This document shows, one piece after another, positions 3,439 to 62,254 of a DNA stretch of 64,000 nucleotides. A model generated the notes under the pieces. The model searched no databases. It was given only the letters and a program-made list of their open reading frames with translations, and was not told the DNA's origin. The position numbers and the translations under genes were made by a program. Source of the stretch: Candidatus Cloacimonadales bacterium (GTDB lineage Bacteria > Cloacimonadota > Cloacimonadia > Cloacimonadales > DAONDQ01); the NCBI GenBank assembly GCA_963662275.1, contig OY759316.1, positions 576,001 to 640,000 on the forward strand. Reading direction: 5' to 3'. The number at the start of each line of letters is the position of its first letter. Within the stretch, counting starts at the first letter, position 1.

Positions 3439-4197
3439 TTATTGCGCAGAATATCCACCATCGATAACCAAATTAGAGCCTGTAATCCAACGTGACCGAT
3501 TGGAAAGAAAAAAAACTGCTGCATCGGCAATATCTTCAGGAAGACCTAGACCAAGAGGATGTCGACTAATGATATCATCTACAGACTCTTTGGATAGATT
3601 CGAAAAAAGATTCTGTACCAATTCTGTTTGTACAATTGCTGGTGAAATGCAGTTTACCCGAATTCTTTTTGTAGCGTATTCCAAAGCAAGTGCTTTTACA
3701 CCGGATATTAAAGCTCCCTTGCTGCTGCAATAGGCAACTTTTCCCGGTTCTCCTAATAAGCCCATGACAGAAGATATAAAAACGAGACTTACCCCATCTG
3801 GCTGCATGTTTTTCTTTTTAATTATCTGTTTTGAAAGTTCAAAACCTGCTACAACATTAAGCGAATAAATTTTTTCATAATCAATTGGATCCGTCATTGG
3901 AAAAGGCTTAGTCATTTCTGTTCCGGCTGAATGGATAAAACCAGAAATTCTCCCTACTTCTTTTACAGCATTTTCAATTATTTCTGGAATCAATTCGTAA
4001 TTCGTAATATCAACTGAGTAGTTTCGATTGTTTATACCTTTTAACAACTGCATAGTATCGTTTAATCTCTTCTGATCTCTTCCGAGAAGGATTAAATTAG
4101 CTCCGAGATTACTGCAACTGATAGCACATGCTCTTCCAATTCCAGATGAAGCACCAGAAATTACGATGGTTTGGGATGATAAGTCGATAAATTTCAT
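3439..4197 (-). CDS. SDR family oxidoreductase (FabG-like)
   Basis: SGASSGIG, YCSSK (YxxxK), RVNCISP, ITGSNLVIDGG. Confidence 0.9.
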   Translation of the reverse strand: MKFIDLSSQTIVISGASSGIGRACAISCSNLGANLILLGRDQKRLNDTMQLLKGINNRNYSVDITNYELIPEIIENAVKEVGRISGFIHSAGTEMTKPFPMTDPIDYEKIYSLNVVAGFELSKQIIKKKNMQPDGVSLVFISSVMGLLGEPGKVAYCSSKGALISGVKALALEYATKRIRVNCISPAIVQTELVQNLFSNLSKESVDDIISRHPLGLGLPEDIADAAVFFLSNRSRWITGSNLVIDGGYSAQ

Positions 4198-4692
4198 AGC
4201 TGCTTAACCCTTGAATGCATATTCTTATAGAAATCCATAAAATTCCTTTATTTTCGATAATTATTATAAAATTGCATCTATATAATTTATTCGGAATATG
4301 TCCAGATATTTCATTTTTTGAACTATTTCAAGACTACTGTATTCGTTTCTGCTTATCCTCTTAGATCAAGTAGGATGAATTCCAACTCTTAAGCAAAATA
4401 GTTCTTGTTATTTCTCTCTATTTGTGATTTCTAATCTCGTAAATAGCAGGTGTCTTCATTTATAATGTAGGGATAATCTAGGGATAATCTAGACTTTGTT
4501 ATGTTATCTTTAGTTTATTGTCCTTTTGTAATTTTGTAATCCGAACTTTTTGATTTATGAGGTATCAAAGGATAAATCGATCATATCTGTGAGAGAAAAT
4601 ATCCAAAAAAGATGAAAATCATTGACATCAATTTAAGATAGCAACAATTCGTCTTTAAAAACACATAGAAGTGTTGAATTGGAGATAGAGCT

Positions 4693-5694
4693 ATGCCAGG
4701 ATGTAAAATATCAATGATTGAGACATATTTTCCCAAAAAAACTGTCACGAATGAAGATTTGTCACAAGAGTTTCCCGATTGGTCACCTCAGAAAATTGAA
4801 AAAAAAATTGGTATCGCAGAAAGACATGTCACTATTGAAAACGAAACTGCTGTGGATCTTGCTCGAGAAGCCTGTCAAAAGTTATTTCTGATAGAAGATA
4901 AATCAAAAATAGATTTCTTGCTTCTTTGCACTCAAAGTCCTGATTATCTGCTTCCTACTTCAGCATGCATTCTTCAGGATCAATTGGGACTTCCAACGAC
5001 AATAGGTGCATTGGATTTTAATCTTGGCTGTTCAGGGTTTGTTTATGGTTTAGCTCTTGCCAAGGGCTTGATCAGCGCTAATATTGCAAAAAATGTTCTT
5101 CTCATAACATCAGAAACTTATTCAAAACACATACATCCTCAAGATAGAGGAAATCGAAGCATCTTCGGAGATGGGGCAGCAGCATGCATTGTATTTGATT
5201 CTGATGATAACGGGATTTTTGATTTTGAACTAGGTACTGATGGGAGAGGATGGGAAAATTTAATTATCCGCAATAAAGGAATGAGAAATTCTTCCATAAA
5301 TAACTCAGAAGATTGGATTGATGAATCGGGATCAATTCGAAATGACAATAATCTGTATATGAATGGTCCAGAAATCTTCAATTTTACTATTGAAGCTGTT
5401 CCTAAATTAATTGAAGAAGTATTGAAAAAGAATAAAGTTGCACTTGCTGATGTGGATTATTTTATTTTCCATCAGGCAAATCAATACATGCTGAATTATC
5501 TCAGAGATATCATTGGAATACCTGAGAGTAAGTTTTATTTAAATATGATGAATACAGGTAACACTGTTTCAGCAACGATTCCTATTGCCTTGAAGGACGC
5601 ATTGGAAAAGATGTTAATAAAAAAAGGTGATAGGGTACTTTTAGCTGGTTTCGGTGTTGGTTATTCGTATGGTTCAACCATAATTACAATATAG
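4693..5694 (+). CDS. Ketoacyl-ACP synthase III (FabH-like)
   Basis: Triad motifs LGCSGF, FHQAN, GNTVSATIP; AGFGVG. Confidence 0.92.
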   Translation: MPGCKISMIETYFPKKTVTNEDLSQEFPDWSPQKIEKKIGIAERHVTIENETAVDLAREACQKLFLIEDKSKIDFLLLCTQSPDYLLPTSACILQDQLGLPTTIGALDFNLGCSGFVYGLALAKGLISANIAKNVLLITSETYSKHIHPQDRGNRSIFGDGAAACIVFDSDDNGIFDFELGTDGRGWENLIIRNKGMRNSSINNSEDWIDESGSIRNDNNLYMNGPEIFNFTIEAVPKLIEEVLKKNKVALADVDYFIFHQANQYMLNYLRDIIGIPESKFYLNMMNTGNTVSATIPIALKDALEKMLIKKGDRVLLAGFGVGYSYGSTIITI

Positions 5695-5708
5695 ATTGAG
5701 GAGATAAA

Positions 5709-5939
5709 ATGGTTATCAATCAGTTTCTTAATGATCTTAAAGATCTACTTGAATTGTCTGAAGATATCGATCTGAATACAGATCTCAAATCACTTGATGA
5801 ATTTGACTCTATGGCTATTATGTCTTTAGTTGCATTCTTACATAAAAAATTTGGAAAGCAATTCAATGCAAGGCAACTGAATAATATTACTACTGTACAG
5901 TCTTTAGTTGACCTAATAGGAAATGATAGTTTTAATTAG
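5709..5939 (+). CDS. Acyl carrier protein
   Basis: 76 aa, acidic, FDSM phosphopantetheine motif; GAGGAG RBS; follows FabH. Confidence 0.85.
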   Translation: MVINQFLNDLKDLLELSEDIDLNTDLKSLDEFDSMAIMSLVAFLHKKFGKQFNARQLNNITTVQSLVDLIGNDSFN

Positions 5940-6022
5940 ATAAAAGAGAATATGCTAAAATGATTCGAGTTACCATAGGAAAAAATGGAAAATTGTTTGT
6001 GTGCGGATAAAAGGCTGAATTT

Positions 6023-7426
6023 ATGTTTCTAAGTTGGCCATATTTCCCAATATTAATTTTTTCGGCAATTATTTACTGGGCACTTCCGAAACAAAGAAAT
6101 CGAAATCTATTTCTGACAGCAGTGAGTTTAGCATTCATCTATTGGTTTGATAAAAATGCTGTTATTGTCGTCATCGGTTTAACTCTATTTACCTTTTTAA
6201 TTGCTTGGTGGATCGAAAAAAGCCAAGGTGGAAAACTTGCACATACGATAGGTATTGTAGGTTTACTACTTGTTCTTGCCATATTTAAGTATTTGGGATT
6301 TTTATCGGGGACTTTAAACAGTCTATTTAGCTTTGTACATCAACTTCCAGTTTTTCAATTTGAGAAATTATTTCTTCCGTTGGGTATTTCATACATTACA
6401 TTTAAATACATAAGTTATTTAACAGATATACAATGGGGGCTTTTCAAAAAAGGTAACTTTCTTGATTTACTTTGCTATGGAAGTTTGTTTACAATTTTCG
6501 CGGCAGGTCCTATTGAACGTTTTGATCGCATGAAACCTCAATTCGAATCTGATAAAATTGTCTTTAAATTGAATTACGTTGAAGTTGCTTTTGAAAGGAT
6601 TATCTTTGGTCTTTTTCAGAAACAAATATTAGCTGATCGTTTGGCTGAGTATACATTGCAATTCTGGTATTATCCAACAACGTATACTCTAGTATCTCAG
6701 ATAATAGTGCTATTTGGATATGCACTCCAAATGTATTTAGATTTTTCCGGTTATAGTAGTATAGCAATCGGTTCATCTAGATTGTTTGGATTGACAATTA
6801 TGGAGAACTTCAATAATCCTTATTTGGCATCTAATATTAGTCAATTCTGGAGGCGATGGCACATTTCCTTGTCAGAGTGGATTCGTGATTATATATTCTT
6901 CCCTCTGTATCAATACAAATCATATAGTTTTTGGCTTTTCGTATGTGTTCCGATTATTGCAATGGCTTTATGTGGGCTTTGGCATGGAGCATCCTGGAAT
7001 TATGTACTTTGGGGTATTTGGCATGGAGTAGGAATAGCTATTTATCATTATTGGAATAAGTACAAGAAGAAACATAAAAAGTTTGAATTAGCTCTAAATA
7101 CTCCAATAATTTCCCGAACGGCTATTCTTGTTACATTTTTCTATGTTTCGTTGGGGGGGATTATTTTTCGTACAACAAATCTCGGTCATTTAACAAATTT
7201 ATTTTTTCACCATGGCGAGCAAGAATTAAGTATTCGAGGCAAAGCACTTATATTAGTTTTGCTGCTATGCATATTCCTTGTACCCAATTATCATAAGATA
7301 TTACAGAAAATCTCGATGAAAAGATATTACCCATATGTGAAATGGTTTGTGTTATTTGTTATCATTGAATCTATCTTCTTTTTATCACCAGCCACTTCTG
7401 CGCTTTTTATTTATGCAGGATTCTGA
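6023..7426 (+). CDS. MBOAT O-acyltransferase (AlgI/DltB-like) with fused C-terminal FIYAGF motif
   Basis: LPLGISY, AGPIER, DFSGYS, FWRRWHISLS, GLWHGA (catalytic His); ends LFIYAGF. Confidence 0.92.
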   Translation: MFLSWPYFPILIFSAIIYWALPKQRNRNLFLTAVSLAFIYWFDKNAVIVVIGLTLFTFLIAWWIEKSQGGKLAHTIGIVGLLLVLAIFKYLGFLSGTLNSLFSFVHQLPVFQFEKLFLPLGISYITFKYISYLTDIQWGLFKKGNFLDLLCYGSLFTIFAAGPIERFDRMKPQFESDKIVFKLNYVEVAFERIIFGLFQKQILADRLAEYTLQFWYYPTTYTLVSQIIVLFGYALQMYLDFSGYSSIAIGSSRLFGLTIMENFNNPYLASNISQFWRRWHISLSEWIRDYIFFPLYQYKSYSFWLFVCVPIIAMALCGLWHGASWNYVLWGIWHGVGIAIYHYWNKYKKKHKKFELALNTPIISRTAILVTFFYVSLGGIIFRTTNLGHLTNLFFHHGEQELSIRGKALILVLLLCIFLVPNYHKILQKISMKRYYPYVKWFVLFVIIESIFFLSPATSALFIYAGF

Positions 7427-8346
7427 TGAAAAAGCTCATTATTTACATTCTTTTCATCCCTTGCATTATCACCATGAATAATCTAGTTAATCTGACTATC
7501 AGTAATAACTTCGCTGAGGATGTATTTACGAATGAATATCCATATCAATGGGTGGAAAAATTACATGTAAAACCTAAGATAGTTCTTGTGGGTAGCTGTA
7601 CAACTCAAACTGGCTATTCTGCAAAAGAGCTACAGAAATTATTAGGATTACGAGATGGAGAAGTGATTAATCTTGCCACCGCTCCTAGTAGTCCAGAAAT
7701 TACGTACTTTATTGTGAAGAAGTATATTGATAAATTTGATGATAACGCATTAATATTGTATGGTTTTGACCCAGAAATTCTTAGTGAAGTTTATTATCAT
7801 TATTTGAATATTTTATTATCGCACTGGTCATTAAGGGAAAGAATTAGTTATATCTCATCACATAACACTGATTTTCCAACAACTATGAATATTGTTAATG
7901 GGGGGAATGTTTTCATGAATATCGAGGACATTTTTGTTACTAACAGTAAGGATACCAAAGGGGATGATTATGGAAGTACTAAGTATTTAAGAGGATTAGA
8001 TCCAACTATACCTGTCGAGCAATCTTTTTGTCTTTCTACATTTCATATTTCTCAGCGTTTTTTACAGAATTTCGCAAAACTAGATAATCTTGTATATCAA
8101 AAACACAGAAAAATGATCGTCTATTATCCAGCGTATTCAAATCGCTTTATGAAGCAATATATTGAATTAAATTATCATAACAATATTCAGACTCAATTAC
8201 ATAAAGTCATAAAGTATAGCCGGTTTGAAGACCAGTTAACAACACACCCAGATTCATGCTATCTTGATTTGATTCACATTTCACTAAAAGGAAAGAAAAC
8301 AAATCTACCAAGAATCCTCAGGTTAATACAGAAATCAGGAAACTGA
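7426..8346 (+). CDS. Membrane-anchored SGNH-like/DltD-like acyltransferase partner
   Basis: N-terminal TM; VLVGSCTT block-I-like motif; VINLA; C-terminal DLIH; TGATG coupling to MBOAT. Confidence 0.65.
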   Translation: MKKLIIYILFIPCIITMNNLVNLTISNNFAEDVFTNEYPYQWVEKLHVKPKIVLVGSCTTQTGYSAKELQKLLGLRDGEVINLATAPSSPEITYFIVKKYIDKFDDNALILYGFDPEILSEVYYHYLNILLSHWSLRERISYISSHNTDFPTTMNIVNGGNVFMNIEDIFVTNSKDTKGDDYGSTKYLRGLDPTIPVEQSFCLSTFHISQRFLQNFAKLDNLVYQKHRKMIVYYPAYSNRFMKQYIELNYHNNIQTQLHKVIKYSRFEDQLTTHPDSCYLDLIHISLKGKKTNLPRILRLIQKSGN

Positions 8347-8439
8347 TATTAATATGAAAAAGAGCATTCCAATTGAATTCATGATCCTAATAACAATCAA
8401 GATGAATCAGTGGTTAGCAGTGGCTCGGAAATTTAAGTT

Positions 8440-9840
8440 ATGTTTTTAAGTTGGTTCTATTTTCCTTTTTTAGGGATAGTAGCTTTCATTTATTGGATGC
8501 TTCCTAAACAAAAAATACGGAATATTTTTCTATCATTCGTTAGTTTTGTATTCATTTATTGGTTTGATAAAAAATCCATTGTGGTCATTCTTGGTCTCAC
8601 GATATTCACTTTTGCGATAGCTAGTTGGATTGAAAAAAGGAATGGAGGAAAACTTGCTCATACTATCGGAGTAATTGGATTAATTATCATACTTGCCATA
8701 TTTAAATACTTGGGATTTTTATCGGGAATTCTAAATAGCTTAGTGAGCTTTGTGCATCAACTTCCGAGTTTTCAAATAGAAAAATTATTTCTTCCTCTAG
8801 GTATTTCATATATTATATTTAAGTATATTAGTTATATCACTGATATTTATTGGGGGACTTTAAAGAAAGGAAGTTTTGTTGATCTGTTATGCTACGGGAG
8901 TTTATTTACAATTTTAGAAGCTGGACCTATTGAACGTTTTGAAAGGATGCAGCCTCAACTAGAATCAAGTAAGATCATATTTGATGTTAAACATGTTGAA
9001 GTAGCAATAGAAAGGATTATCTTCGGACTTTTATTAAAACAAGTAATCGCAAACCGATTAGCTGAATACACGATCACATTCTGGCAAGATCCATCTAAAT
9101 ACTCCTTAGTAGCCCAGGTCACAGCACTATTTGGATATTCCCTTCAGATTTATTTCGATTTTGCCGGTTACAGTAGTATTGCTATCGGATCATCTAGATT
9201 ACTCGGTTTGAAGATAATGGAGAATTTTGATAATCCGTATCTTTCATCTAATATCAGCCAATTTTGGCGTCGTTGGCACATTTCATTGTCCGATTGGATA
9301 CGAGATTATATCTATTTCCCACTGTCCCAAAATCAATCCAATAGATTCTGGATTCTGATTTGTGTACCGATAATCTCAATGTCTTTGTGTGGATTGTGGC
9401 ATGGTGCATCATGGAATTTTGTGATATGGGGAGCATGGCACGGTGTTGGGATTGTTATTTATCAAAATTGGAATAAGTATAAGAGACAGCACAAAAAATC
9501 AGTATTAGCTCTGAATACTCCTTTAATTTCTTTTGTTGCTATGATAATTACATTTATCTATGTTTCATTGGGATGGATGTTATTTCTCTCTACAGATATC
9601 TCCCATGTGACAGATATTCTGATCAAACATGGCGGGAAAGCATTAAGTATACGCTCTACAGTACTCATTTTAGTACTGTTGCTATGCATTTTTCTCGTAC
9701 CCAATTATAATAACATATTGAAGAAATTATCAGAGAAAAGATACTACCAATTTTTGAAATGGCTTACTTTGTTTATTATCTTGGAATGCATTTTAAATTT
9801 ATCATCAGCCAAGACGCTTTTTATTTATGCAGGTTTCTGA
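8440..9840 (+). CDS. MBOAT O-acyltransferase, paralog of 6023-7426, fused FIYAGF tail
   Basis: Same motifs, collinear with the first copy; ends LFIYAGF. Confidence 0.92.
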   Translation: MFLSWFYFPFLGIVAFIYWMLPKQKIRNIFLSFVSFVFIYWFDKKSIVVILGLTIFTFAIASWIEKRNGGKLAHTIGVIGLIIILAIFKYLGFLSGILNSLVSFVHQLPSFQIEKLFLPLGISYIIFKYISYITDIYWGTLKKGSFVDLLCYGSLFTILEAGPIERFERMQPQLESSKIIFDVKHVEVAIERIIFGLLLKQVIANRLAEYTITFWQDPSKYSLVAQVTALFGYSLQIYFDFAGYSSIAIGSSRLLGLKIMENFDNPYLSSNISQFWRRWHISLSDWIRDYIYFPLSQNQSNRFWILICVPIISMSLCGLWHGASWNFVIWGAWHGVGIVIYQNWNKYKRQHKKSVLALNTPLISFVAMIITFIYVSLGWMLFLSTDISHVTDILIKHGGKALSIRSTVLILVLLLCIFLVPNYNNILKKLSEKRYYQFLKWLTLFIILECILNLSSAKTLFIYAGF

Positions 9841-10778
9841 TGAAAAAGTTAATTTTTTTAGTTATCTTCATACCCTGTACTATTATCCTGAATAATGTAA
9901 TTAATCTGATGATTAGTAGTAACTTTGCTGACTATGTGTATACAAAAGAATTCCCCTATCAATGGGTTACTAAACTATCTGTAAGTCCCAAAATAATCTT
10001 GGTAGGTAGTTGTACGACGAGAAGAGCTTACTCGTCAAAAGCGCTACAGGAGGCATTAGGATTGCAGGATGGGGAAGTAATAAATCTTGCGACAACTCCA
10101 AATAATCCAGAGATCACATATTTTCTGGTGAACAAGTACATTAATAGCTTTGCTAGTAATGCTCTCATTTTGTATGGTATCGACCCCTTTATCCTTAGTG
10201 AGATTTATTATAAGAATTTTAACATTCTATTGTCTCAGTGGAGTTTGAAAGAACGATTCGATTATGTTGCTGCAAATAATAGTGATTTCCCCACTACAAT
10301 GAATATCGTAGATGGAGGTAACGTTTTCATGAATATAAAGGAAATTGTCATGAATAACAACACTGATACAAAGCTAAATGATTTCGGCAGCACTATTCCA
10401 AGTAAGGTTGCAGAATCTGATCAACCTCCACTCAATCAATGGTTTTATCTTTCTACTTATAATATATCTCAGCGTTTTATGGAGAATGTCTCAAAACTCG
10501 ATAAATTAGTATATCAAAAACACCGAAAAATGATTGTCTATTATCCCGTTTATCCGGATTGTTATATGAAGCAATATGAAAAGATCAATTGTCATAACAG
10601 CATTCAGGCTCAATTACATAAAGCTATTCAACTAAATCGTTTCGATGACCAATTATCAACTTATCCTGATTCCTGCTACGTTGATCTTGTACATATTTCT
10701 CAAAAAGCGAGAAATGATTTTTTAGCAAGTATAATTGATGTCATTAAGAGATCCGGATTCCAAGTTACAACAAAATAG
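9840..10778 (+). CDS. SGNH-like/DltD-like partner, paralog of 7426-8346
   Basis: Start revised to ATG 9840 (TGATG coupling, MKKLIF); ILVGSCTT, VINLA, DLVH. Confidence 0.65.
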   Translation: MKKLIFLVIFIPCTIILNNVINLMISSNFADYVYTKEFPYQWVTKLSVSPKIILVGSCTTRRAYSSKALQEALGLQDGEVINLATTPNNPEITYFLVNKYINSFASNALILYGIDPFILSEIYYKNFNILLSQWSLKERFDYVAANNSDFPTTMNIVDGGNVFMNIKEIVMNNNTDTKLNDFGSTIPSKVAESDQPPLNQWFYLSTYNISQRFMENVSKLDKLVYQKHRKMIVYYPVYPDCYMKQYEKINCHNSIQAQLHKAIQLNRFDDQLSTYPDSCYVDLVHISQKARNDFLASIIDVIKRSGFQVTTK

Positions 10779-10894
10779 CAATACTGCAACCGATAACTAG
10801 CCTTTTATACACAAAATGAATTGTGGTTCATTGAAGATGAATGTGAAGTTCAGTACTTTTCTTAGTCGGATTCAATAAATGAGAACAATATAAC

Positions 10895-11914
10895 TCACTG
10901 TTTGAAGGTTTTGAATAGATCTAAACCTAGTACTTGATTGCCTAGAGTATTAAAATGTCCACCAGTGATAAAATAACGTCCATCATAACTAATAGAACCA
11001 TCATATCCAAAATTAATTCCTGCTTTTCGGCAATCAACGTCAATTATTTTATTCCATTTATCGCTCATTATTGATAAGCACAAAAACCTATCACCATATT
11101 GTCTATGCATTTCATGAAGATTTGATAACAATATGAGATATGCCTCTTGATTAAATTCAAGAGATGAATAAGGACGATAATAGATTTTTTCTGCTTTTGT
11201 TGAACCTTTAACGATACCCGGTTTTCGGAAACTGACTCTTACCAGATTTACTAAAGATGATTTATTACAGATCAACTTCACAATATCGAATTTCCAGTCA
11301 TGAGTTTCCTGATCAAAATTATCTGGTAATACGTATGATTCAGACTTAGCATTTAGCATATTTGTTACGGTTCCATCATTAATAATTAAGATAACATAAT
11401 CAGGTTTAATTTTTTTTGACCAATGAATCAATCGGCACCATCCCTCAAATGGTATTTGTCCACCAAGACCGATATTGATAACTTGAAAATCTTTAGATAT
11501 ATGCTTACTTAATAATTCTTGGAATACCGATGTGGACATCTCCTTTGGAGCTGTGGCTCTTGCTTCAACATATGAGTTGCCCATAACATAAATGTACTTG
11601 GAATTATCGTTTATAACTACATCTGTTCCCTGAAGCCCAAGATTGTTTTTCCTATAGACATGATATCCACCTTCCAATGAATAATAACTCGCATGAGGTA
11701 AAAACTCGTTTTCGTAAAGAGGAGCATTGGGAGTTTTATCATTCGGATAGATATGATATGATTTTCCAAACCCTAAAGTCGGGAAGTGTGTTACTACTCT
11801 TACTAAAAATTCAACACATACAAATGAAATGGCGGTAATGATAATATATAGAAGTGCTATTTTGAGTTTCGAAGTCAACATACAAAACTTCCTAGTATAT
11901 AAATATACATACAT
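10895..11914 (-). CDS. SGNH/GDSL-family protein (acyltransferase/esterase partner)
   Basis: N-terminal TM, NNLG, VMGNSYVE, VINIGLGG, KPDYVILIIND, GGHFN. Confidence 0.75.
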   Translation of the reverse strand: MYVYLYTRKFCMLTSKLKIALLYIIITAISFVCVEFLVRVVTHFPTLGFGKSYHIYPNDKTPNAPLYENEFLPHASYYSLEGGYHVYRKNNLGLQGTDVVINDNSKYIYVMGNSYVEARATAPKEMSTSVFQELLSKHISKDFQVINIGLGGQIPFEGWCRLIHWSKKIKPDYVILIINDGTVTNMLNAKSESYVLPDNFDQETHDWKFDIVKLICNKSSLVNLVRVSFRKPGIVKGSTKAEKIYYRPYSSLEFNQEAYLILLSNLHEMHRQYGDRFLCLSIMSDKWNKIIDVDCRKAGINFGYDGSISYDGRYFITGGHFNTLGNQVLGLDLFKTFKQ

Positions 11915-11918
11915 CTAA

Positions 11919-13067
11919 TTACCTCAACCACCAAGTTCCAACGGTGACGAAAACAAAAGTAATAACAACACTCACATACTGAAACCATACTGCTTCAGCA
12001 GCTTTTGAGAGAGAACGATGTTGACGTTTGAATTGGCTCCATAATCTCCAGATAGCAATTCCTACTCCATGCCAGATACCCCATATTACAAAATGCCAAG
12101 CTGCACCATGCCACAGACCGCATATTCCCATTGCTATGATGGGTGTACATACAAACATCCAGAATTTGCTTGTGCTTTTTTGTGATAGAGGAACAAAAAT
12201 ATAATCTCTTATCCAATCAGACAAGGATATGTGCCAACGTCTCCAGAACTGACTGATATTCGGAGCAAAAAAAGGGTTATCGAAATTTTCCATGATTGTC
12301 AAACCATACAATTTGGATGAACCAATGGCAATATCGCTATAACCTGAAAAATCAAAATAGACTTGCAGGGAAAAACCAAACAAAGCTGCTATTTGAATTA
12401 AAGATGAATAATGTTCCGGTCCTCTGAAAACCGGATTGATAAGATATCCTAACCAATCTGCCAATACATATTTCTTGATTAAACCATAAACGATTCTTTC
12501 AAAACCTACACTGATAAAAGCGGTTTGAAATTGAATACGTCGACTTTCTAACTGTGGTTTTAGGCGAACGAATTGCTCAATTGGACCAGCAATAAAAATT
12601 GTATAAAGAGAACCATAGCAAAGAAAATCCAGAAATTTACCCTTTTGAATGATCTCCCATTTTATATCAGTTAAATAGCTAATATATTTGAAAACAATAT
12701 AGGATATACCCAAAGGTAGAAACAGCTTATCTATTTGAAATATGGGTAGGATATGAATAAAACTCATCAAACTATTTATGATACCGCTTAGGAATCCAAG
12801 ATACTTAAAAATAAGAAGAACAAGTATCAGACCGATAATACCCATTGTGTGGACGTAATGTTTACGGATTTTTTCCATCAAGATAGCTATCCCATAGGTA
12901 TATAAGGTTAATCCGATGACTACCAATACCGCATTAGGATCAAGGTATCCGATAAAAATGAAGCTAATCAATGTTAAGAATGTATTACGCCACTTTTGAT
13001 TGGGAATTAACCAATAAAGTAAAACTGTAATGATTACAAATGGGAAAAAGAGAACCTTACCCAACAT
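11919..13067 (-). CDS. Short MBOAT O-acyltransferase (DltB-like length, no fused tail)
   Basis: LPLGISY, DFSGYSD, FWRRWHISLS, GLWHGA; ends TWWLR; start probably ATG 13067. Confidence 0.9.
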   Translation of the reverse strand: MLGKVLFFPFVIITVLLYWLIPNQKWRNTFLTLISFIFIGYLDPNAVLVVIGLTLYTYGIAILMEKIRKHYVHTMGIIGLILVLLIFKYLGFLSGIINSLMSFIHILPIFQIDKLFLPLGISYIVFKYISYLTDIKWEIIQKGKFLDFLCYGSLYTIFIAGPIEQFVRLKPQLESRRIQFQTAFISVGFERIVYGLIKKYVLADWLGYLINPVFRGPEHYSSLIQIAALFGFSLQVYFDFSGYSDIAIGSSKLYGLTIMENFDNPFFAPNISQFWRRWHISLSDWIRDYIFVPLSQKSTSKFWMFVCTPIIAMGICGLWHGAAWHFVIWGIWHGVGIAIWRLWSQFKRQHRSLSKAAEAVWFQYVSVVITFVFVTVGTWWLR

Positions 13068-13114
13068 AATAAGTTTCTCCAAGATCTATAATCTGGTTGA
13101 TGCTATGATAATGA

Positions 13115-13273
13115 TTAGAAATTTGCATAGAAAAACGGATTGCTTGTTGTTACAATTATATGGTTAAAAGCAATAGAAGCAATAGCCAAAATAAAGAGAA
13201 AGCTTAAAATGAAATACTTGAGTAATGAAGCCAATAGTGGCTTTGTCTCGCTTAACTTTGAAAATAATTTCAT
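13115..13273 (-). CDS. 52-aa DltX-like single-TM acyl-shuttle peptide (absent from ORF track)
   Basis: MKLFSKLSETKPLLASLLKYFILSFLFILAIASIAFNHIIVTTSNPFFYANF*; purine-rich RBS; lies between ACP and tail-less MBOAT. Confidence 0.8.
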   Translation of the reverse strand: MKLFSKLSETKPLLASLLKYFILSFLFILAIASIAFNHIIVTTSNPFFYANF

Positions 13274-13334
13274 CTTCAACCTTCCCTTTTGTTAGCATAT
13301 GGGATACAATTGCATATATCATAAAATGAATAGA

Positions 13335-13583
13335 TTAATCCTCAAATTTATCCATCCCGATTAGATTCATTAAATCACCAATCGTACCAACTTCATTCAG
13401 TTTTTTTGCTATAATATTGATTCCAAATCTTTTACTGATAAAAGATACGAGTGACACAACCGATAAGGAATCATAACCTTCGATGCTTGCTAGTTTGGTA
13501 TTAACAGTTATTTTGGGCGCGTCAGGATCTGAAGAATCAGCAAATTCATTTAACAACTCTTCGATAAATCGGTCTTTTTTCAT
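13335..13583 (-). CDS. Acyl carrier protein
   Basis: YDSL motif; start ATG 13583 after AGGAGA. Confidence 0.85.
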   Translation of the reverse strand: MKKDRFIEELLNEFADSSDPDAPKITVNTKLASIEGYDSLSVVSLVSFISKRFGINIIAKKLNEVGTIGDLMNLIGMDKFED

Positions 13584-13597
13584 GTCTTCTCCTTTAG

Positions 13598-14902
13598 TCA
13601 ATTCTGAAAATTAATCTGTCTGAATTTTCTTTGCATTTTACTCATAAATGGTTGAATGCTTGAGGCAGCCAATACGATGAGGAAGCAATCAAGCACAATT
13701 CTATAACGCTCAAGGGTATAAGGGATAAATAGCACATGTATTATGGTATGCCAAATGAAGATACACAGCAGAAAAACAAATATCTGATTATCTTTTGTTT
13801 TCAGTTTTAACATTCCATAGAAAAAAAAAGGTATGAGCATACCATACATCAATCCAGAAACAAGATTGTGTTTTAGAGACCATTTACCATCCCAGAGATA
13901 ACCATCTAATTTATACCCTTCGTGGAAATCTACTGGAGCCCATAACTCTAGAAACCGCGACCATAACTTCTCACCAGTTGAGAATTTATGGGGCAATAAA
14001 CCTCTTCGAATGGCTGCCGCGAATTCAGGTCGAATTTCTCCATCAATCAGATGTGCAGTATAACCATTTCTAACGGAGTCAATTTGTGTTGGTGTTAATT
14101 CCCATGCCCAATCATTATTCGCATAATACTCCTGGTATGGGTATCCGAAAAGTTTGTCAGTAATGGGTGCTGTTCTGACTGAAAGAATCACAATTTTATG
14201 GTAAACATGATAATTACGTATTAACCAGGGAACCATACACATGAATACAATTAAGGAAAAGATCAAAGCAGATTGTAATTTTTTGATAATGCTATCTGTA
14301 TTAAGCATAAATAATGCTACAAATAGGAGAGGAATATAGGCAAAAAATCTCTCATCAATATGGATCAAGAGAGAATAAGAGAGTGAACACAGAAGTAGGG
14401 GAATCCATTTCCTAGAGACTTTTCTAAAACGTAAAACACAAAATATGGTCGATAAAAATAAAAAATGAATCCAAATCTCTTTTCCTGAAGTTACGATGAA
14501 TCGAAGATAGAAATAATAAACAGAACTCCATATTAAAGCCATAAGTCCAATGGTTTCATTAAACAACTCTTTCCCTAAGTAATAGATCAGGATACATAAT
14601 CCCGTACTTAATAGTGTATTAAATAAGAAAATAACCAACCAGGATTTTCCCAATAGCGTAAAAAGAATTGCTAAAATCCAACCCATCCCAGGTCCAACTA
14701 CTTTTGCCACTGAATTCATCGATGTAATATCCGGTAAGAAAAATCCCTGTGTCATAACACTTTCAGCAAGACTGTAGTACGCTAAATCATCAGCGAAACC
14801 TTCATAGACTTTTGTATAGTAACCATATAATGCCAAGATCAAACGTATTATGAAAGCAACTGATATGATATAAAATAAAAGGCTAGTATTAGTAATTTTC
14901 AT
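13598..14902 (-). CDS. GT-C fold (ArnT/PMT, GT39/83-like) lipid-donor glycosyltransferase
   Basis: Multi-TM; DD..Y..LA first loop; PWLIRNY; ERY near C-terminus. Confidence 0.75.
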   Translation of the reverse strand: MKITNTSLLFYIISVAFIIRLILALYGYYTKVYEGFADDLAYYSLAESVMTQGFFLPDITSMNSVAKVVGPGMGWILAILFTLLGKSWLVIFLFNTLLSTGLCILIYYLGKELFNETIGLMALIWSSVYYFYLRFIVTSGKEIWIHFLFLSTIFCVLRFRKVSRKWIPLLLCSLSYSLLIHIDERFFAYIPLLFVALFMLNTDSIIKKLQSALIFSLIVFMCMVPWLIRNYHVYHKIVILSVRTAPITDKLFGYPYQEYYANNDWAWELTPTQIDSVRNGYTAHLIDGEIRPEFAAAIRRGLLPHKFSTGEKLWSRFLELWAPVDFHEGYKLDGYLWDGKWSLKHNLVSGLMYGMLIPFFFYGMLKLKTKDNQIFVFLLCIFIWHTIIHVLFIPYTLERYRIVLDCFLIVLAASSIQPFMSKMQRKFRQINFQN

Positions 14903-14911
14903 TCAATTTTC

Positions 14912-15295
14912 TCAGCTTCGTGTTACAAGGAAAACGCCAATTACTATGACAAAAACACCAAAAATTCGATAAGTATTCACATTTTCATGAAAAAGTAAAG
15001 CACCAAATAGAAGAACCAGAACATATGAAAGACTCATTATTGGAGCAGCTTTACTGATATCAACAGATGTCAGGATATATAAATATATCGACATCGATAA
15101 AACATAGCAGAATACTCCTGTAATCAATTGCCAGTTCGTTAAAATATTTTTAAATACAAAATCTAAAGATATTAGTTTCAAACTTAAGTCGAGTCTCTGG
15201 GAGGCATATTTCATTAATACTTGTCCAAGTACTCCAACAGCTAAACAAATAATGAAAATCAATACCATCTGCAACCTAAGCTTATCTTCGTTCAT
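14912..15295 (-). CDS. EamA/SMR-type transporter (ArnE/F-like flippase)
   Basis: 127 aa, 4 TM, GQVLMK, DISKAAP, FHE....RIFG. Confidence 0.75.
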   Translation of the reverse strand: MNEDKLRLQMVLIFIICLAVGVLGQVLMKYASQRLDLSLKLISLDFVFKNILTNWQLITGVFCYVLSMSIYLYILTSVDISKAAPIMSLSYVLVLLFGALLFHENVNTYRIFGVFVIVIGVFLVTRS

Positions 15296-15644
15296 TCTTT
15301 TTTTTCTGTTGTCTTATCATCCCGTCATTAACAGCTAAGAAGGATATTACTTCTTGCAACCTATCGGAAACTTCACAGAGCTTGATCGACAGATGTAAGA
15401 TATAAATAAGGAGGAAGAATATGACACCAACAACGACGATTCCTGAAGCATCTGCAGATCCAATTAAAACAGAAACAGCCTTTATCTGACTTTCAAAGAT
15501 GACCAGGCAGAACATAGCTAAACTGATAATGAGCCAAAGCACGGAATAAAATGGTTTGATAGAGCGTTTTCTAACTAGTAAGATAAAAACAAATAGGAAA
15601 AATAACGCTGATATCAGGGCTAAAATTCTAAGCGTTAATGTCAT
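15282..15644 (-). CDS. DUF2304-like membrane protein
   Basis: 3 TM, VRKRSIK..YSVLW, typical position after a DPM-like GT2. Confidence 0.7.
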   Translation of the reverse strand: MTLTLRILALISALFFLFVFILLVRKRSIKPFYSVLWLIISLAMFCLVIFESQIKAVSVLIGSADASGIVVVGVIFFLLIYILHLSIKLCEVSDRLQEVISFLAVNDGMIRQQKKKNERR

Positions 15645-15645
15645 A

Positions 15646-16362
15646 TTATGAACCTCTGATTTGATCTTTTTGTAATCTTGTACCGATTATCGATATAATT
15701 CCGTAAATGATGAATTTAACGCTATTCATGAAATTGAAAACAGATTTCCCCGAAGTACGTGGATTCATCACGACCGGTACTTCCTTCATCCTCAATTTGG
15801 CATATGCTGCAATCATCAGCATCTGTGCACAATGCTCATATTCATGTTTATGCTGATTTGCAAAAAAGTGAATTGCTTTTTTATTATATGCTCTGAATCC
15901 TGAAGTAATATCTGTGATGCGTTGTCCTGTAAACCAAGTAACAATATCAGAGAATATGGTAATTCCAAGTCTTCGAAATTTGTATGATTGAAATCCTTCA
16001 TTTGTAATGAATCTTGATCCAATCGCAATATCAGCGTTTCCATCCAAGACAGGTTGTAGTAGGTCATGCAGACAAGAAGCATTATGCTGATTATCTCCAT
16101 CAAGATTGCAGTAAATGTCATAATCATTGAGATAAGCGTAAAGAAAACTGGTTTTAATTACACCGGAAACCCCACCCGTATTAACTGCGTGACGCAAATA
16201 CTCTTCTCCACTTTTTTTTATTAGCTCATAACTTCTATCAACGGACGAGTTATCTATTATCAACAGATCTGCGTCTATTTTGGCATGATTACGAAAGTCA
16301 GCAATTGTATCTAGGATTGCTCCTTCCTCATTGTAGCATGAAATAACGGTTAAAATTTTCAC
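15646..16362 (-). CDS. GT2 polyprenyl-phosphate glycosyltransferase (DPM1/ArnC-like)
   Basis: YNEE, IDNSSVD, DGDNQH, IGSRF, TDITSGFRAY. Confidence 0.88.
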   Translation of the reverse strand: MKILTVISCYNEEGAILDTIADFRNHAKIDADLLIIDNSSVDRSYELIKKSGEEYLRHAVNTGGVSGVIKTSFLYAYLNDYDIYCNLDGDNQHNASCLHDLLQPVLDGNADIAIGSRFITNEGFQSYKFRRLGITIFSDIVTWFTGQRITDITSGFRAYNKKAIHFFANQHKHEYEHCAQMLMIAAYAKLRMKEVPVVMNPRTSGKSVFNFMNSVKFIIYGIISIIGTRLQKDQIRGS

Positions 16363-16400: not shown

Positions 16401-16961
16401 TTAGTCTTGAATTAAGGGATGATTCTGGTTGAAATTAAACAATGACATGAGAAGTACATCATGATAGCAGGAATTATGATAATGCTGTGCTTTTAATGTT
16501 CCTTCCAGGATAAATCCATTCTTTTCAAAAACTCTTCTCGAAGCAGTGTTATCAGAAGTAATAAAGCATGTAAGCTTATTCAGATTTAAATTCCCAAATG
16601 AAAAATCAATCAGCAATTGCAATATCTCTGTTCCGATTCCTTTGCCATGAGTTTCATGTTCTCCAATGACTATCAAAGGATTTGCATTCCGGTTCACATA
16701 ATTGATATTCGTTAGTCCCGTGAAACCCAAAAGACGAGATGTTTCATTATCGATCACAGAAAAATAGATATTTTTATTACTTGTAGAACTAACTACTGAA
16801 TTCATCCAGTCTTCTTCCTGCTGTATTGTAACAGGATATGGATGCATCATGGCTGAGTACTTATAATTTGCATTATTATGCCATTCATTAATTAAATCCA
16901 GATCTTCGCTCTTCATCTGCCTAAAAGAAATATGCTCTCCATTCAGTAGATATTTGCTCAC
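16401..16961 (-). CDS. RimJ/RimL-type GNAT N-acyltransferase
   Basis: HGKGIG, N.AS.RVFEKNGFILEG. Confidence 0.85.
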   Translation of the reverse strand: MSKYLLNGEHISFRQMKSEDLDLINEWHNNANYKYSAMMHPYPVTIQQEEDWMNSVVSSTSNKNIYFSVIDNETSRLLGFTGLTNINYVNRNANPLIVIGEHETHGKGIGTEILQLLIDFSFGNLNLNKLTCFITSDNTASRRVFEKNGFILEGTLKAQHYHNSCYHDVLLMSLFNFNQNHPLIQD

Positions 16962-16984
16962 TAATAGGCTCCTTTTAAAAAAAA

Positions 16985-18172
16985 CTAATCACTCAAAATA
17001 TACTGTGATATATAATGGGTGATGCTATTTGATTGTATTTCCAATTTCTCACGCTTATCGCTACTGATTATAAAATATCCATATCTGTCAAGACTATTCT
17101 TCACTATCCAAGTCATGCTGTTGACCATTAAATCGCACGTAAATTCTTCAATACAAGGAAACTTCTGCTTCAACTCTTGTTCATTTGGAAGATGTTTTAT
17201 CATCTGGTTTGTGGGTAAATTAAGATAAGTTATCATCGAGGCTTTATTCTCAATAGAATATTGGGGTTGATCACCAATAGCTATTAAGATGACTTGCTTT
17301 TCCATATTCACGGTTGTTGATAACGGAACGAGACGAGAAGTAATATAATCTCCTCCCAGCCTTGGACCAATCTCAATAATCGTAATTTTACCATCATGTA
17401 TTTTCAATTCAGCATGAATTGCAGTATTATTTAAACCAGCCTGTGTTAAAACTTTCTGCAACAGAACGTGGAGTGAGAGTTTGAAGTCCATTGTGTACTT
17501 TGATGGTTGAATATGTCCTAATTCGACATTATACGGAGGGGGAGTAACGATTTTATCGGTTATCTGTATCAGTGTTAGCACATTCTTGTATATAAATGCT
17601 TCTACACTGATTTCATCTCCTTCCAGATATCCTTCCATAATAAACTCATCAATAGTAGAATATCGCAAGGTTTCTTCAACAGATTTCAAAAGAAAATCAT
17701 ATGAATCACATTTTATAACCCCTCGACTTCCGGAATTTCGAAGTGGTTTAATAATGACTGGGAATGCTATCTCATCTTCCCTGGGAATAGTATTTATATG
17801 ATAAACTCCTCCCTGGGCATGCCGAAATGAATTAGCTTTTAAAAATTCTTTGAATTTACCTTTATTAAGAACTAATTCAACGCTTTCATAAGAAGGAAAT
17901 ACTAAATTCATTGCTTTTGCAATACGCGCCATCATTGAGATCGGATGATCTGTCGCAGCCGTTACAACACCCGAAATATTATGTTTTTGTGCAAGTTGAA
18001 GCGTATATTCATAGTCATTTCCAGCTACCACGTAGAAATAGTCAGCAATGGTATTGGCTTCTGCATTAGGATTCGGATCAATGACAACCGATTCAAAACC
18101 CATCTCTTTTGCCGTTTGTATGATCGAAATTTGGAGACCACCTCCTCCAAAAATCATGATGGCTTTATTCAC
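16985..18172 (-). CDS. ATP-grasp ligase
   Basis: FGGGGLQ, FPVIIKP.RNSGSRGV, EISVE, IEIGPRLGGD. Confidence 0.85.
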   Translation of the reverse strand: MNKAIMIFGGGGLQISIIQTAKEMGFESVVIDPNPNAEANTIADYFYVVAGNDYEYTLQLAQKHNISGVVTAATDHPISMMARIAKAMNLVFPSYESVELVLNKGKFKEFLKANSFRHAQGGVYHINTIPREDEIAFPVIIKPLRNSGSRGVIKCDSYDFLLKSVEETLRYSTIDEFIMEGYLEGDEISVEAFIYKNVLTLIQITDKIVTPPPYNVELGHIQPSKYTMDFKLSLHVLLQKVLTQAGLNNTAIHAELKIHDGKITIIEIGPRLGGDYITSRLVPLSTTVNMEKQVILIAIGDQPQYSIENKASMITYLNLPTNQMIKHLPNEQELKQKFPCIEEFTCDLMVNSMTWIVKNSLDRYGYFIISSDKREKLEIQSNSITHYISQYILSD

Positions 18173-19305
18173 ATCTGTTCCAAAATTAATGCAAGTTCTG
18201 AGACTATTAGATCAATCTGTTGTATCGTTAATCCTGAATAGATTGGAAGCGTAATTTCGTGGTCAGTGGCAAAATCGGTTTCAGGTAAATCGGCATGATA
18301 GTTTTTATATATTGAGAATCTATGTGCCGCTGGATAATGTATGCTTGTTTGAATTCCTATTGTATGTAACTTGTCACGCACTCTATCACGATACTCATAA
18401 TCACCATTATTTAAGATAATGGGGAATATGTAATTAGAACAGAATTCCTGATGATCTTTAAAGGGAATAGTAATATTAGGAATTGTACTCAGCTTTTCCA
18501 GATAATACTTACGGAGTATCATTCTTTTTTGTAGATCAACGTATAATTTGCGAAGTTGAACGATGGCAATGGATGCTCGGATATCATCCATCCGATAATT
18601 ATAGCCTAAAGCTACAACATCATAGGAAGTCGAATGTCCGGAAGCTCGTTCATATGACATGGAAGTCATTCCATGAGAGCGGAGCAATTTGATTTTGGCA
18701 GCATACTCATCGTTATTTGTAATGATCATACCGCCTTCACCTGTAGAAATATTCTTATTGGAAAAAAAACTGAAACAACCTAAATCTCCAATTGTTCCTA
18801 ATTTTTGATGATGATATTCGGAAAGAGGTCCATGACAGGCATCTTCAATTACCTTTAAATTATGTTTTTCAGCAATTGCCATAATTTCATCCATCTTGCA
18901 GGGGAAACCAGCAAAATGCATGACAGCAATGGCTTTTGTACGAGGAGTAATCTTCTTTTCGATATCAACGGGATCTATCGTTAAGTCATCTTTCGAAATA
19001 ATATCACAAAAAACGGGAGTTGCCCTGACATAAAGTATAGAATTCACGGTAGCTACAAATGTCATGGCAGGAACAAGAACCTCATCCCCGTCTCCAATGC
19101 CTGCAACTTCAAATGCCAAATGCAATGCCACCGTACAGTTTGTTAAGGCAATTGCATGCTTGACTCCAAGCATGGATGCAAACATGTTTTCCAGTTCAAT
19201 ATTCTTTGGACCTGTCGAAATCCACTTGGAATGTATTGTCTCTAAGGCAGCTTTTTCTTCTTCATGGTCAAAATTCAAATCAAAAAGTGGTATATTATAA
19301 CTCAT
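18169..19305 (-). CDS. DegT/DnrJ/EryC1/StrS sugar aminotransferase
   Basis: NCTVALH, IEDACH, FSFFSNKNISTGEGG, GYNYRM. Confidence 0.93.
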   Translation of the reverse strand: MSYNIPLFDLNFDHEEEKAALETIHSKWISTGPKNIELENMFASMLGVKHAIALTNCTVALHLAFEVAGIGDGDEVLVPAMTFVATVNSILYVRATPVFCDIISKDDLTIDPVDIEKKITPRTKAIAVMHFAGFPCKMDEIMAIAEKHNLKVIEDACHGPLSEYHHQKLGTIGDLGCFSFFSNKNISTGEGGMIITNNDEYAAKIKLLRSHGMTSMSYERASGHSTSYDVVALGYNYRMDDIRASIAIVQLRKLYVDLQKRMILRKYYLEKLSTIPNITIPFKDHQEFCSNYIFPIILNNGDYEYRDRVRDKLHTIGIQTSIHYPAAHRFSIYKNYHADLPETDFATDHEITLPIYSGLTIQQIDLIVSELALILEQM

Positions 19306-19320
19306 ACTTAATCCTGGGTT

Positions 19321-20292
19321 CTAAACATTATAAATGTCAGTTTTATAAAGAGAGAGGTTCTCGTTTAAGAATTCAATCGTTTCACGAATACCGGAATCAA
19401 GATTATATGAAGGTTTCCAATCCGTATTCTCCATAATTTTCTGATTTGCACAATATAAACGTTCAACCTCGCTTTTACCAGGTCTTATCCGTTCATCATC
19501 CGTCTTTATCTCTATAGGAATTTGTAATAAATTACTTATCTTTTTTACCAAATCACCAATGGAGATTTCTTCACACATTCCAATATTTGTCACTTCTCCA
19601 AATAAACGATCTGATTGAAGAATAGAGATAAAGCCTCGAACTGTATCTTTTACAAATGTCAAGTCTCTTGTGGGATGCAAATTACCTAGATTGAGTTCTG
19701 TCTTACCGCTGAGTATTTGAGTAATGACAGTAGGAATTATCGCACGTGCTGATTGCCTCGGTCCATAAGTATTAAATGGTCTGACTATTTTTACCGGCAA
19801 GCCAAATGAACGGTAATAACTGATTGCCATTTGATCTGCTGCAATTTTAGATGCAGAATAGGGTGATTGACCAACAAGCGGGTGATTCTCATCAATGGGA
19901 ACATATTGAGCGGTTCCATATGTTTCACTTGTCGAAGTGACAAGAATGTTTTCCAAACTTCGTACTCTTGCGGTTTGAAGAACATTGTATGTACCTTCAA
20001 TATTGGTACGAATATAAGCTAAGGGCGAAACATAAGAATACGGAATACCGATGAGAGCAGCTAAATGAAGAACAGTGGAACATCCATCCATCGCATCATA
20101 TACAGAATCATAGTCGCGTATATCTCCGGTTACGATTTCCATATCGTTCTTGTACTTTGAATTTTCCAACCAACCCCAAAAATTCTTGGAGTTGTAATGG
20201 ACAAATGCTTTTACTTCATAACCCAACTCAACACAATATTCTGCCAAATGTGAACCAATAAAACCGCCTGCTCCAGTGATCAGTAATTTCAT
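19321..20292 (-). CDS. NDP-sugar 4,6-dehydratase (LegB-like)
   Basis: TGAGGFIGSH, LAALIGIPYSY, STSETYG, YSASK, RPFNTYGPRQS. Confidence 0.88.
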   Translation of the reverse strand: MKLLITGAGGFIGSHLAEYCVELGYEVKAFVHYNSKNFWGWLENSKYKNDMEIVTGDIRDYDSVYDAMDGCSTVLHLAALIGIPYSYVSPLAYIRTNIEGTYNVLQTARVRSLENILVTSTSETYGTAQYVPIDENHPLVGQSPYSASKIAADQMAISYYRSFGLPVKIVRPFNTYGPRQSARAIIPTVITQILSGKTELNLGNLHPTRDLTFVKDTVRGFISILQSDRLFGEVTNIGMCEEISIGDLVKKISNLLQIPIEIKTDDERIRPGKSEVERLYCANQKIMENTDWKPSYNLDSGIRETIEFLNENLSLYKTDIYNV

Positions 20293-20418
20293 CTTATTTC
20301 CTTATCTACTTTTTTTATTTGTGTTGCATGATTAACCTTCAAATCACGAAACTCTATCCTGATAAGATTTGTAAAAAATCCTGATATTTGGGTTTATTTC
20401 TCAGTAATTTATTGGTTA

Positions 20419-21117: not shown

Positions 21118-21138
21118 GAATTCACCTTTCTCGATATT

Positions 21139-60791: not shown

Positions 60792-61002
60792 CGGAACGCC
60801 TCACCCCGTGAGGTGGCAAAACGCACCCCGTGCGTTTCCAGTATTCAGTTTATCTCACAAGCAATTTATTCGCTTTCAATATATAATGTCAAATAGTTTT
60901 TCAGCTCATAAAGTCTTCATTTCTTTTATCATAAGCAGTTGTATACCCCAGTCTCGCAGCGCACGGGGTGCGCTGTGCCACCTCACGGGGTGAGGCGTTC
61001 CG
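60792..61002. repeat. REPIN/MITE-like element: 43-bp inverted repeats (2 mismatches) around a 125-bp core
   Basis: 60792-60834 versus 60960-61002; each arm contains two small hairpins. Confidence 0.85.
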
Positions 61003-62251: not shown

Positions 62252-62254
62252 CTA

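Follow-up and report, generated by a model that had tools for sequence, protein, structure and literature searches.

Candidate carrier-protein-fed MBOAT-SGNH modules for surface glycan O-acylation in a Cloacimonadota bacterium

Introduction

Membrane-bound O-acyltransferases (MBOAT) and their SGNH partners move acyl groups in a relay, which according to the JBC 2025 paper on PatAB (PMC12148441) starts at a thioester donor and passes the MBOAT histidine, the tyrosine of an FxYxxF motif and the SGNH serine before it ends at the polymer; the role of FxYxxF is presented there as established for DltX and PatA. The Dlt pathway operates with a carrier protein and a microprotein; according to the same paper neither occurs in the other MBOAT/SGNH pathways, the donor of which is acyl-CoA (PMC12148441). 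We describe here a locus in which three MBOATs, each with an SGNH-type partner, lie next to two acyl carrier proteins (ACP), a FabH (ketoacyl-ACP synthase III, KAS III) and a short-chain dehydrogenase/reductase (SDR), and report the families, catalytic residues, motifs, gene order, clades and co-occurrences of these genes. The locus was found in a 64,000-nucleotide stretch of DNA (in the following the window; G000:C1:576001-640000, where G000 is the genome and coordinates without prefix are those of the window) of an uncultured anaerobic bacterium of the phylum Cloacimonadota, order Cloacimonadales, whose genome of 4.38 Mb is a single contig and 99.97% complete.

One of the three modules, module 3, has the layout of DltC-DltX-DltB-DltD: a carrier, an FxYxxF microprotein (X), an MBOAT without a C-terminal tail and a membrane-anchored SGNH protein; its MBOAT lacks the PLGGxR loop, as DltB does. 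However, all three MBOATs remain well below the cut-off of the DltB equivalog TIGR04091 (195–211 versus 375 bits) and are 27–31% identical to two annotated DltBs, the ACPs are not DltC, X matches no Pfam family including DltX, partner 3 lacks the aspartate of the DxxH motif, and the host belongs to the Cloacimonadota and has a Wzx-containing glycan locus. Nor is there a DltA: of the genome's four AMP-binding proteins none is DltA-like (one is an acetate-CoA ligase, one is Aas-like and two resemble acyl-CoA ligases), and by Pfam the window itself contains no AMP-binding gene; a first-pass annotation had likewise noted no DltA-like adenylation enzyme in the window. D-alanyl transfer to teichoic acid is unlikely because DltA is missing.

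Modules 1 and 2 resemble PatA-PatB, AlgI-AlgJX and WssH-WssI in that an MBOAT ending in FIYAGF is followed by an N-terminally anchored SGNH protein with the motifs GS...DxxH. Unlike these systems, they have an ACP directly upstream and have lost PLGGxR, and the MBOAT cores of the window fall into an ACP-linked clade in which fused and split forms are mixed; MBOAT3 differs from the PatA/AlgI type also in having no fused C-terminal FxYxxF. By such comparisons the locus would work like Dlt in module 3 and like PatAB in modules 1 and 2, failing Dlt on DltA and on the DltB score and departing from PatAB by its carriers. The group II flagellin glycosylation islands of Aeromonas, too, have an ACP of their own and a FabG-like enzyme in a glycan locus, for which a function in acyl supply has been proposed (PMC7874193); these occur there with an AMP-dependent synthetase and LuxE/LuxC, and no MBOAT is named in the passages concerned. 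The window differs from the set described there in that a FabH is present and the ACPs abut MBOAT-SGNH modules. A literature search by titles and abstract openings found no published description of a FabH-fed, Kbl-fed or other ACP-fed non-Dlt MBOAT system.

The three modules and the proposed relay

FabH (4693..5694), ACP1 (5709..5939), MBOAT1 (6023..7426; 467 aa), its SGNH-like partner 1 (7426..8346), MBOAT2 (8440..9840) and partner 2 (9840..10778; 312 aa, with the start at 9840 as the most likely one) form a block on the plus strand within a locus that is otherwise on the minus strand. On the latter are encoded ACP2 (13335..13583), X (13115..13273; 52 aa), MBOAT3 (11919..13067/13082; about 382 aa) and partner 3 (10895..11914), which make up module 3, and the FabG-like SDR (3439..4197). 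Both ACPs lie directly upstream of an MBOAT module. A Pfam scan returned the three MBOATs, two PP-binding ACPs, one KAS III and one SDR, and the gene set that the first-pass annotation had placed at 3439..13583 in a glycan locus is indeed present there, although X and the difference between fused and split MBOATs had escaped it. Its term "triplicated" holds only for the number of modules: modules 1 and 2 represent one unit duplicated in tandem, with a period of 2417 nt and an identity of about 74% at the DNA level (69% between the MBOAT proteins and 62–63% between the partners), and module 3 differs in architecture and lies on the opposite strand.

On the mechanism established for Dlt and PatAB, from which the relay steps are carried over, the modules would, outside the inner membrane, O-acylate the surface glycan of the locus. 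At the cytoplasmic face each MBOAT would take the acyl group from phosphopantetheinyl-ACP, and its histidine (His321 in MBOAT1 and MBOAT2, His320 in MBOAT3) would hand it to the tyrosine of an FxYxxF shuttle, which is fused in MBOAT1 and MBOAT2 (LFIYAGF; Tyr464 and Tyr463) and would be provided by X (PFFYANF; Tyr49) for MBOAT3. The serine of the SGNH partner (Ser57 in partner 1) would then receive the group and esterify a sugar hydroxyl. On the loader side FabH would condense a short primer, acetyl-CoA or a different one, with malonyl-ACP1 and the SDR would reduce the product; the resulting short 3-hydroxyacyl group, most simply a putative 3-hydroxybutyryl group, would feed at least modules 1 and 2 and perhaps, via ACP2, module 3. 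Since the window MBOATs are of a clade whose ACPs are otherwise linked to a Kbl-like enzyme (see below), their position behind FabH-class ACPs would amount to a swap of the loader. This is the simplest account because each of the two ACPs immediately precedes an MBOAT module and because ACP1 descends from ACPs that feed MBOATs. That the local FabH and ACP1 are the source for modules 1 and 2 is on balance probable, and for the whole of the loader swap, with a short 3-hydroxyacyl-ACP made by FabH and SDR and feeding at least these two modules, we see about an even chance.

The acyl donor of the MBOATs

An ACP rather than CoA is likely the donor, because all three window MBOATs lack the PLGGxR loop and because an ACP is encoded upstream (within 2.2 kb) of 28 of the 37 distinct MBOATs of their clade, fused forms included. 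GGxR is absent from 36 of these 37, from two annotated DltBs and from all 12 MBOATs in the FabH-ACP-SDR operons of other genomes (the latter read by eye), whereas it is retained in 145 of 158 other MBOATs without an upstream ACP and is also present in an annotated AlgI and in a Proteus MBOAT; duplicate short loci and sequences shorter than 330 aa are excluded from these counts. The sole clade member keeping it (GGSR; locus L147) is without an ACP in its vicinity, and a search of its genome (96% complete) gave no match to the Kbl paralogue. The segment after RDY, at the start of which the loop is located, aligns with the DltC-binding helix of DltB and the residues immediately ahead of it; DltC is reported to sit on helix HC (M302-R317) (PMC11035591). 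We infer that the PLGGxR loop is linked to CoA binding. It should be noted, however, that three MBOATs near a FabH or an ACP keep GGxR (L232, L233, L268), that it is missing in 13 of the 158 ACP-less MBOATs (one of which, L221, has an ACP downstream), and that its loss represents only about three independent lineages. Prediction of an MBOAT1-ACP1 complex gave no answer either way (score 0.03, mark 0.32). The first-pass annotation's claim of MBOAT-SGNH acylation fed by a carrier protein in the absence of DltA is backed by the ACP context, by the loss of PLGGxR and by a genome without DltA.

The same evidence bears on the view that the window MBOATs are ordinary PatA/AlgI-type O-acetyltransferases using acetyl-CoA, and that ACPs and FabH are next to them by coincidence, the glycan locus being a mosaic. 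MBOAT1 and MBOAT2 have the fused architecture that is tied to acyl-CoA donors in PMC12148441, and in BLAST they score 167–181 bits to AlgI-type proteins versus 117–132 bits to DltB. But they have lost GGxR, the ACPs upstream of their relatives accompany fused members too, and the only relative with an intact loop is the one lacking both an ACP nearby and a Kbl-paralogue match, all of which makes acetyl-CoA a very improbable donor.

FabH, the carrier proteins and the SDR

FabH scores 280 bits against NF006829 (cut-off 249) and 252 bits against TIGR00747 (cut-off 292), contains the full Cys-His-Asn condensing triad (C113, H260, N290) and is a non-housekeeping copy; the housekeeping fab cluster is found elsewhere (G000:3810413). 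ACP1 (PF00550, 1e-9) and ACP2 (Pfam PP-binding) have the phosphopantetheine serine (Ser34 and Ser39, respectively), are 38% identical and are by family not DltC. ACP1 belongs to the FabH-cassette class. It is 61–64% identical to the ACPs of FabH-ACP-SDR-MBOAT-SGNH operons and is sister to these (SH-aLRT 98, on few columns), not to the ACPs of MBOAT-free cassettes. ACP2 is by its scaffold of the same class and occupies the slot that usually holds a Kbl-type ACP. The idea that ACP2 is a chimaera whose docking helix is of the Kbl type was dropped: although it is 64% identical to one Kbl-type ACP over 22 residues, the mean similarity to that class (41.6) is hardly above the value for the best FabH-class ACP (39.2). 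The SDR (Pfam adh_short_C2, 4e-49) has a TGxxxGxG-type glycine motif at 15 and YxxxK at 156, scores 139.5 against the FabG equivalog TIGR01830 (cut-off 297.75) and is a candidate 3-oxoacyl-ACP reductase. Classical SDRs like it accompany these FabHs in other loci as well, and it is 33–52% identical to the SDRs of FabH cassettes generally.

The linkage of FabH, ACP and SDR to MBOATs in other genomes, on which the first-pass annotation had staked its proposal, does exist. A close FabH is present in 19 of 231 other genomes of the phylum, and 8 of 20 FabH regions of the phylum are FabH-ACP-SDR-MBOAT-SGNH operons, among them those of all six closest FabHs (64–67% identity); in each of the eight the SDR gene stands between those of ACP and MBOAT. 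The same genes are contiguous in 4 of 80 metagenome loci found with one FabH-operon MBOAT (L206, L221, L222, L241), and in 2 more of the 80 a FabH-ACP pair lies a few kb off.

FabH enzymes have transacylase side activity. FabH might therefore load an unextended short acyl group (acetyl or branched) onto ACP1 and ACP2 in place of Kbl, without involvement of the SDR, which would result in ACP-dependent O-acetylation. The probable acetyl chemistry of the MBOAT clade would then be kept and the loader alone changed, and the SDR is indeed divergent and not orthologous to the operon SDRs. The complete condensing triad and the invariable position of the SDR in the eight operons, which implies a keto intermediate, argue against it, and we regard this alternative as improbable.

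A second set of FabH, SDR, an LbH acyltransferase and a PIG-L-like deacetylase is encoded in the same glycan locus (G000:C1:559543-562738; L002:3544-6739). No ACP is found in this set; it might draw on ACP2 or produce an acyl group that stays in the cytoplasm.

Kbl-linked relatives of the window MBOATs

The clade of the window MBOATs (42 rows with support 100 in a quick tree of 78 selected rows) was found in 30 of the 231 other phylum genomes, and it is here that most of what speaks against the loader swap is met. In all of 33 phylum loci the adjacent ACP is of a different class (LISSGxIDSFSLVSL), here called Kbl-type, and in none of them is a FabH-class ACP directly upstream of the MBOAT. The MBOATs of the FabH operons form a separate clade. 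A Kbl paralogue is present in 26 of the 30 genomes with a window-clade MBOAT versus 38 of 201 without (related genomes not being independent), whereas a close FabH is present in only 4 of the 30. A FabH lies within about 9 kb in 2 of the 33 loci, both of which also have the other ACP and Kbl; that FabH and SDR are a conserved feeder of these MBOATs, as the proposal of the first-pass annotation would have it, is not supported. Conversely, 12 of the 20 phylum FabH loci and all 8 FabH loci from 401 Bacteroidota genomes are without an adjacent MBOAT (one MBOAT is 5 kb away), and the FabH cassette therefore often serves something else. In the window itself SDR and FabH are divergently transcribed, and the SDR is only 42–45% identical to the SDRs of the FabH-ACP-SDR-MBOAT operons, compared with 64–67% for FabH; its membership in the set is the weakest link. 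Finally, a Kbl-type ACP (G000:2581314) and a Kbl paralogue (within G000:3205758-3209133) are encoded elsewhere in the same genome.

An alternative to the loader swap is that the MBOATs use a probably acetyl-loaded, Kbl-type ACP made elsewhere and that the local FabH, ACP and SDR supply a hydroxyacyl group for the cytoplasmic N-acylation of a nucleotide amino sugar, either by the DegT aminotransferase and the GNAT of the window, the GNAT being then a rival consumer of acyl-ACP, or by the LbH enzyme at G000:559543. In its favour, besides the co-occurrence, a Kbl-like enzyme is encoded beside the ACP in 14 of the 33 loci, and a divergent Kbl copy (57–68%) is restricted to genomes with this MBOAT (16 of 16). 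FabH-ACP-SDR sets without MBOAT are common in glycan loci, a similar set of ACP and reductase is described for the Aeromonas islands (PMC7874193), and one locus, L126, has a Kbl-ACP-MBOAT module and, apart from it, an ACP-FabH-SDR cassette. Against a Kbl-made donor it has to be held that neither ACP-containing module of the window has a Kbl-type ACP, a FabH-class ACP being in that slot in both, and that the nearest relatives of ACP1 are the ACPs of MBOAT operons rather than of MBOAT-free cassettes. We consider this explanation unlikely. In gene content the window therefore couples the loader genes of one conserved system with the membrane genes of a different one; none of the 33 related loci shows this pairing.

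The genome contains a second, unlinked module of the standard type (G000:C1:2581113-2586304; L001), composed of a paralogue of X (G000:2581113; FFYANF), the Kbl-type ACP, a split MBOAT of the same clade (59% identical to MBOAT1) and a partner-3-like SGNH protein, and further of a fused MBOAT (FIYAKF) without PLGGxR and its partner; no loader was found near this module. At G000:C1:3205758-3209133 (L003:1759-5134) an acetate-CoA ligase, an ACP and the Kbl paralogue are clustered, with a second Kbl beyond a long open reading frame (ORF) that recurs at G000:812767; a gene nearby we take, from its motif, to be AcpS-like. An ACP is beside the Kbl paralogue in 28 of the 30 best loci. With fused, split, FabH-linked, Kbl-linked and ACP-less MBOATs present in one genome, donor specificity can therefore be compared side by side. 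The AlgI-like MBOAT at 818841 of the genome was considered as a displaced partner of FabH and ACP1 and rejected, as it keeps PLGGSR and is outside the FabH-linked group; a further PLGGxR-type MBOAT of the genome is at 3347479. In another locus an AMP-binding enzyme, a GNAT, an ACP, a fused MBOAT without GGxR and an SGNH protein directly follow an X-ACP-MBOAT module (L118:10444-15416), which by its gene content appears to be a further loader type.

The shuttle motif and microprotein X

Only 7 of the 35,206 six-frame ORFs of at least 30 aa in the whole genome have F[IF]YxxF at their end, every one of them an MBOAT or an X-type microprotein. MBOAT1 and MBOAT2 carry the motif behind two extra C-terminal helices; MBOAT3 stops after the core, and X, which has one transmembrane helix, is encoded upstream of it. 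Of the 33 phylum loci 17 have a split MBOAT, 14 have only fused MBOATs and 2 are truncated. An X-type microprotein is encoded in 15 of the 17, the remaining two being located at contig edges, and in none of the 14. The atlas lead for X is to DltX (0.89), and an annotated DltX taken for comparison has 43 aa and ends in HFIYNEF. By analogy X would thus serve MBOAT3 as a separate shuttle.

On core columns the fused members of the clade do not form one group: 6 changes are required and a single origin is rejected (p-AU 5.6e-8; quick tree with two long rows). By this tree the shuttle motif has therefore changed its place, microprotein or MBOAT tail, on more than one occasion. Contrary to what is said in PMC12148441, the locus and its relatives hold a carrier and a DltX-like microprotein outside Dlt; fused and split shuttles are moreover mixed in one clade.

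Many ACP-less MBOATs of the PLGGxR type with about 400 aa in Bacillota, Actinomycetota and Eremiobacterota are without a fused motif and have in their vicinity an ORF of 37–89 aa that ends in FIYxxF (L019, L020, L021, L025-L028, L043, L049, L050, L057, L080, L014, L023 and others). These ORFs apparently encode DltX-like microproteins in systems of the acyl-CoA type, which would likewise differ from the account given in PMC12148441.

The SGNH partners

None of the three partners has a Pfam or NCBIfam match. Partners 1 and 2 have an N-terminal anchor (a transmembrane helix in partner 1) and the GS and DxxH motifs (D281-x-x-H284 in partner 1), match the partner family of AlgI-like MBOATs (hhalign 95%) and have atlas neighbours that carry DltD/LB_356; by motifs, profile and neighbours they are probably of the SGNH type. 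A single-sequence model of partner 1 was unusable (pLDDT 35.6), and a homologue search restricted to near lengths returned only partner 1 itself and its duplicate.

Partner 3 belongs to a different family with a GNS nucleophile. Its model (pLDDT 88, from an alignment of 25 sequences) predicts an SGNH fold: the Foldseek and VIA-align lists consist mostly of SGNH/GDSL chains, headed by crocagin CgnD (Z 17.4, root-mean-square deviation 3.6, 210 aligned residues) and including PatB (Z 12.3); DltD is not among the 50 structural matches listed. G307-H308 (GGH in partner 3) is invariant in the 25 aligned members, the DxxH motif being replaced by GH without a catalytic aspartate. Pfam found among these 25 one GDSL and one DltD match, both weak, and profiles of the partner families gave only weak SGNH matches in PDB (E 0.007–0.4).

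Acceptor and wider meaning

Upstream of ACP2 on the minus strand (13598..16362), and downstream of the DegT, ATP-grasp and GNAT genes, are genes for a GT-C glycosyltransferase (PMT_2), an EamA flippase-like protein, a DUF2304 protein and a GT2, which by Pfam resemble a set for transmembrane glycosylation via a lipid carrier. The acceptor of module 3 may come from this set. Related GT-C, GT2, DegT and LegB genes are found beside X-MBOAT-SGNH genes in L122, as is a GT-C gene in L147. Because module 3 adjoins the glycosyltransferase set and because similar genes flank X-MBOAT-SGNH in these two loci, the putative acceptor could be a side sugar added in the periplasm or a polymer exported by Wzx. 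Modules 1 and 2 have diverged to 63–69% identity with their catalytic residues intact, which is compatible with different target sites.

If the donor is built by FabH, bacteria would export tailored acyl groups, beyond acetyl and D-alanyl, onto finished surface glycans, with consequences for the recognition by phages and antibodies and with a set of enzymes for glycan decoration at hand. More tentatively, and with somewhat greater doubt than confidence, MBOAT-SGNH acylation could be thought of as a plug-in platform, in which Kbl/ACP-fed MBOATs have been recruited behind FabH-ACP-SDR and in which fused as well as split modules take a 3-hydroxyacyl group from ACP. O-linked 3-hydroxyacyl esters could then be put in place on the outer side of the membrane, which would break the dichotomy by which carrier plus microprotein means Dlt and a fused motif means acyl-CoA, and would make the PLGGxR loop a sequence marker of the donor type.

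Genomic surroundings

The locus has a low GC content (32–34% versus 39%). It continues past the left end of the window with a Wzx flippase, glycosyltransferases and the second FabH-SDR-LbH set, and beyond the glycosyltransferase set of module 3 with genes for amino-sugar synthesis on the minus strand (GNAT, ATP-grasp, DegT aminotransferase, LegB-like dehydratase, NTP-transferase and epimerase; 16401..22080). In the sole other genome of the genus (99% complete) no match to MBOAT1 or FabH was found at the thresholds used. The gene arrangement of the three modules is contained within one contig in 2 of 4 runs, which are possibly the source data.

That the plus-strand block is an invertible segment was considered and discarded: the 25 longest of 89 inverted repeats include none whose arms enclose the block, and no strand-changing joint was found in the contigs of the 4 runs, contigs being known to drop rare variants. 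A promoter scan of 4150-4750 gave 2 sites, with 3.6 expected.

Three further observations concern genes of the window outside the locus. At 60983-64000 there is a McrBC-like pair (McrC, Pfam 2e-58), the AAA_5 protein of which is cut by the window end. A peptidyl-arginine deiminase-like protein with an FlgD/Por-type C-terminal domain is encoded at 22241-24367, and a protein with a weak F420_ligase match at 52731-53426, inside an mreB-mreC-mreD-pbp2-rodA operon.

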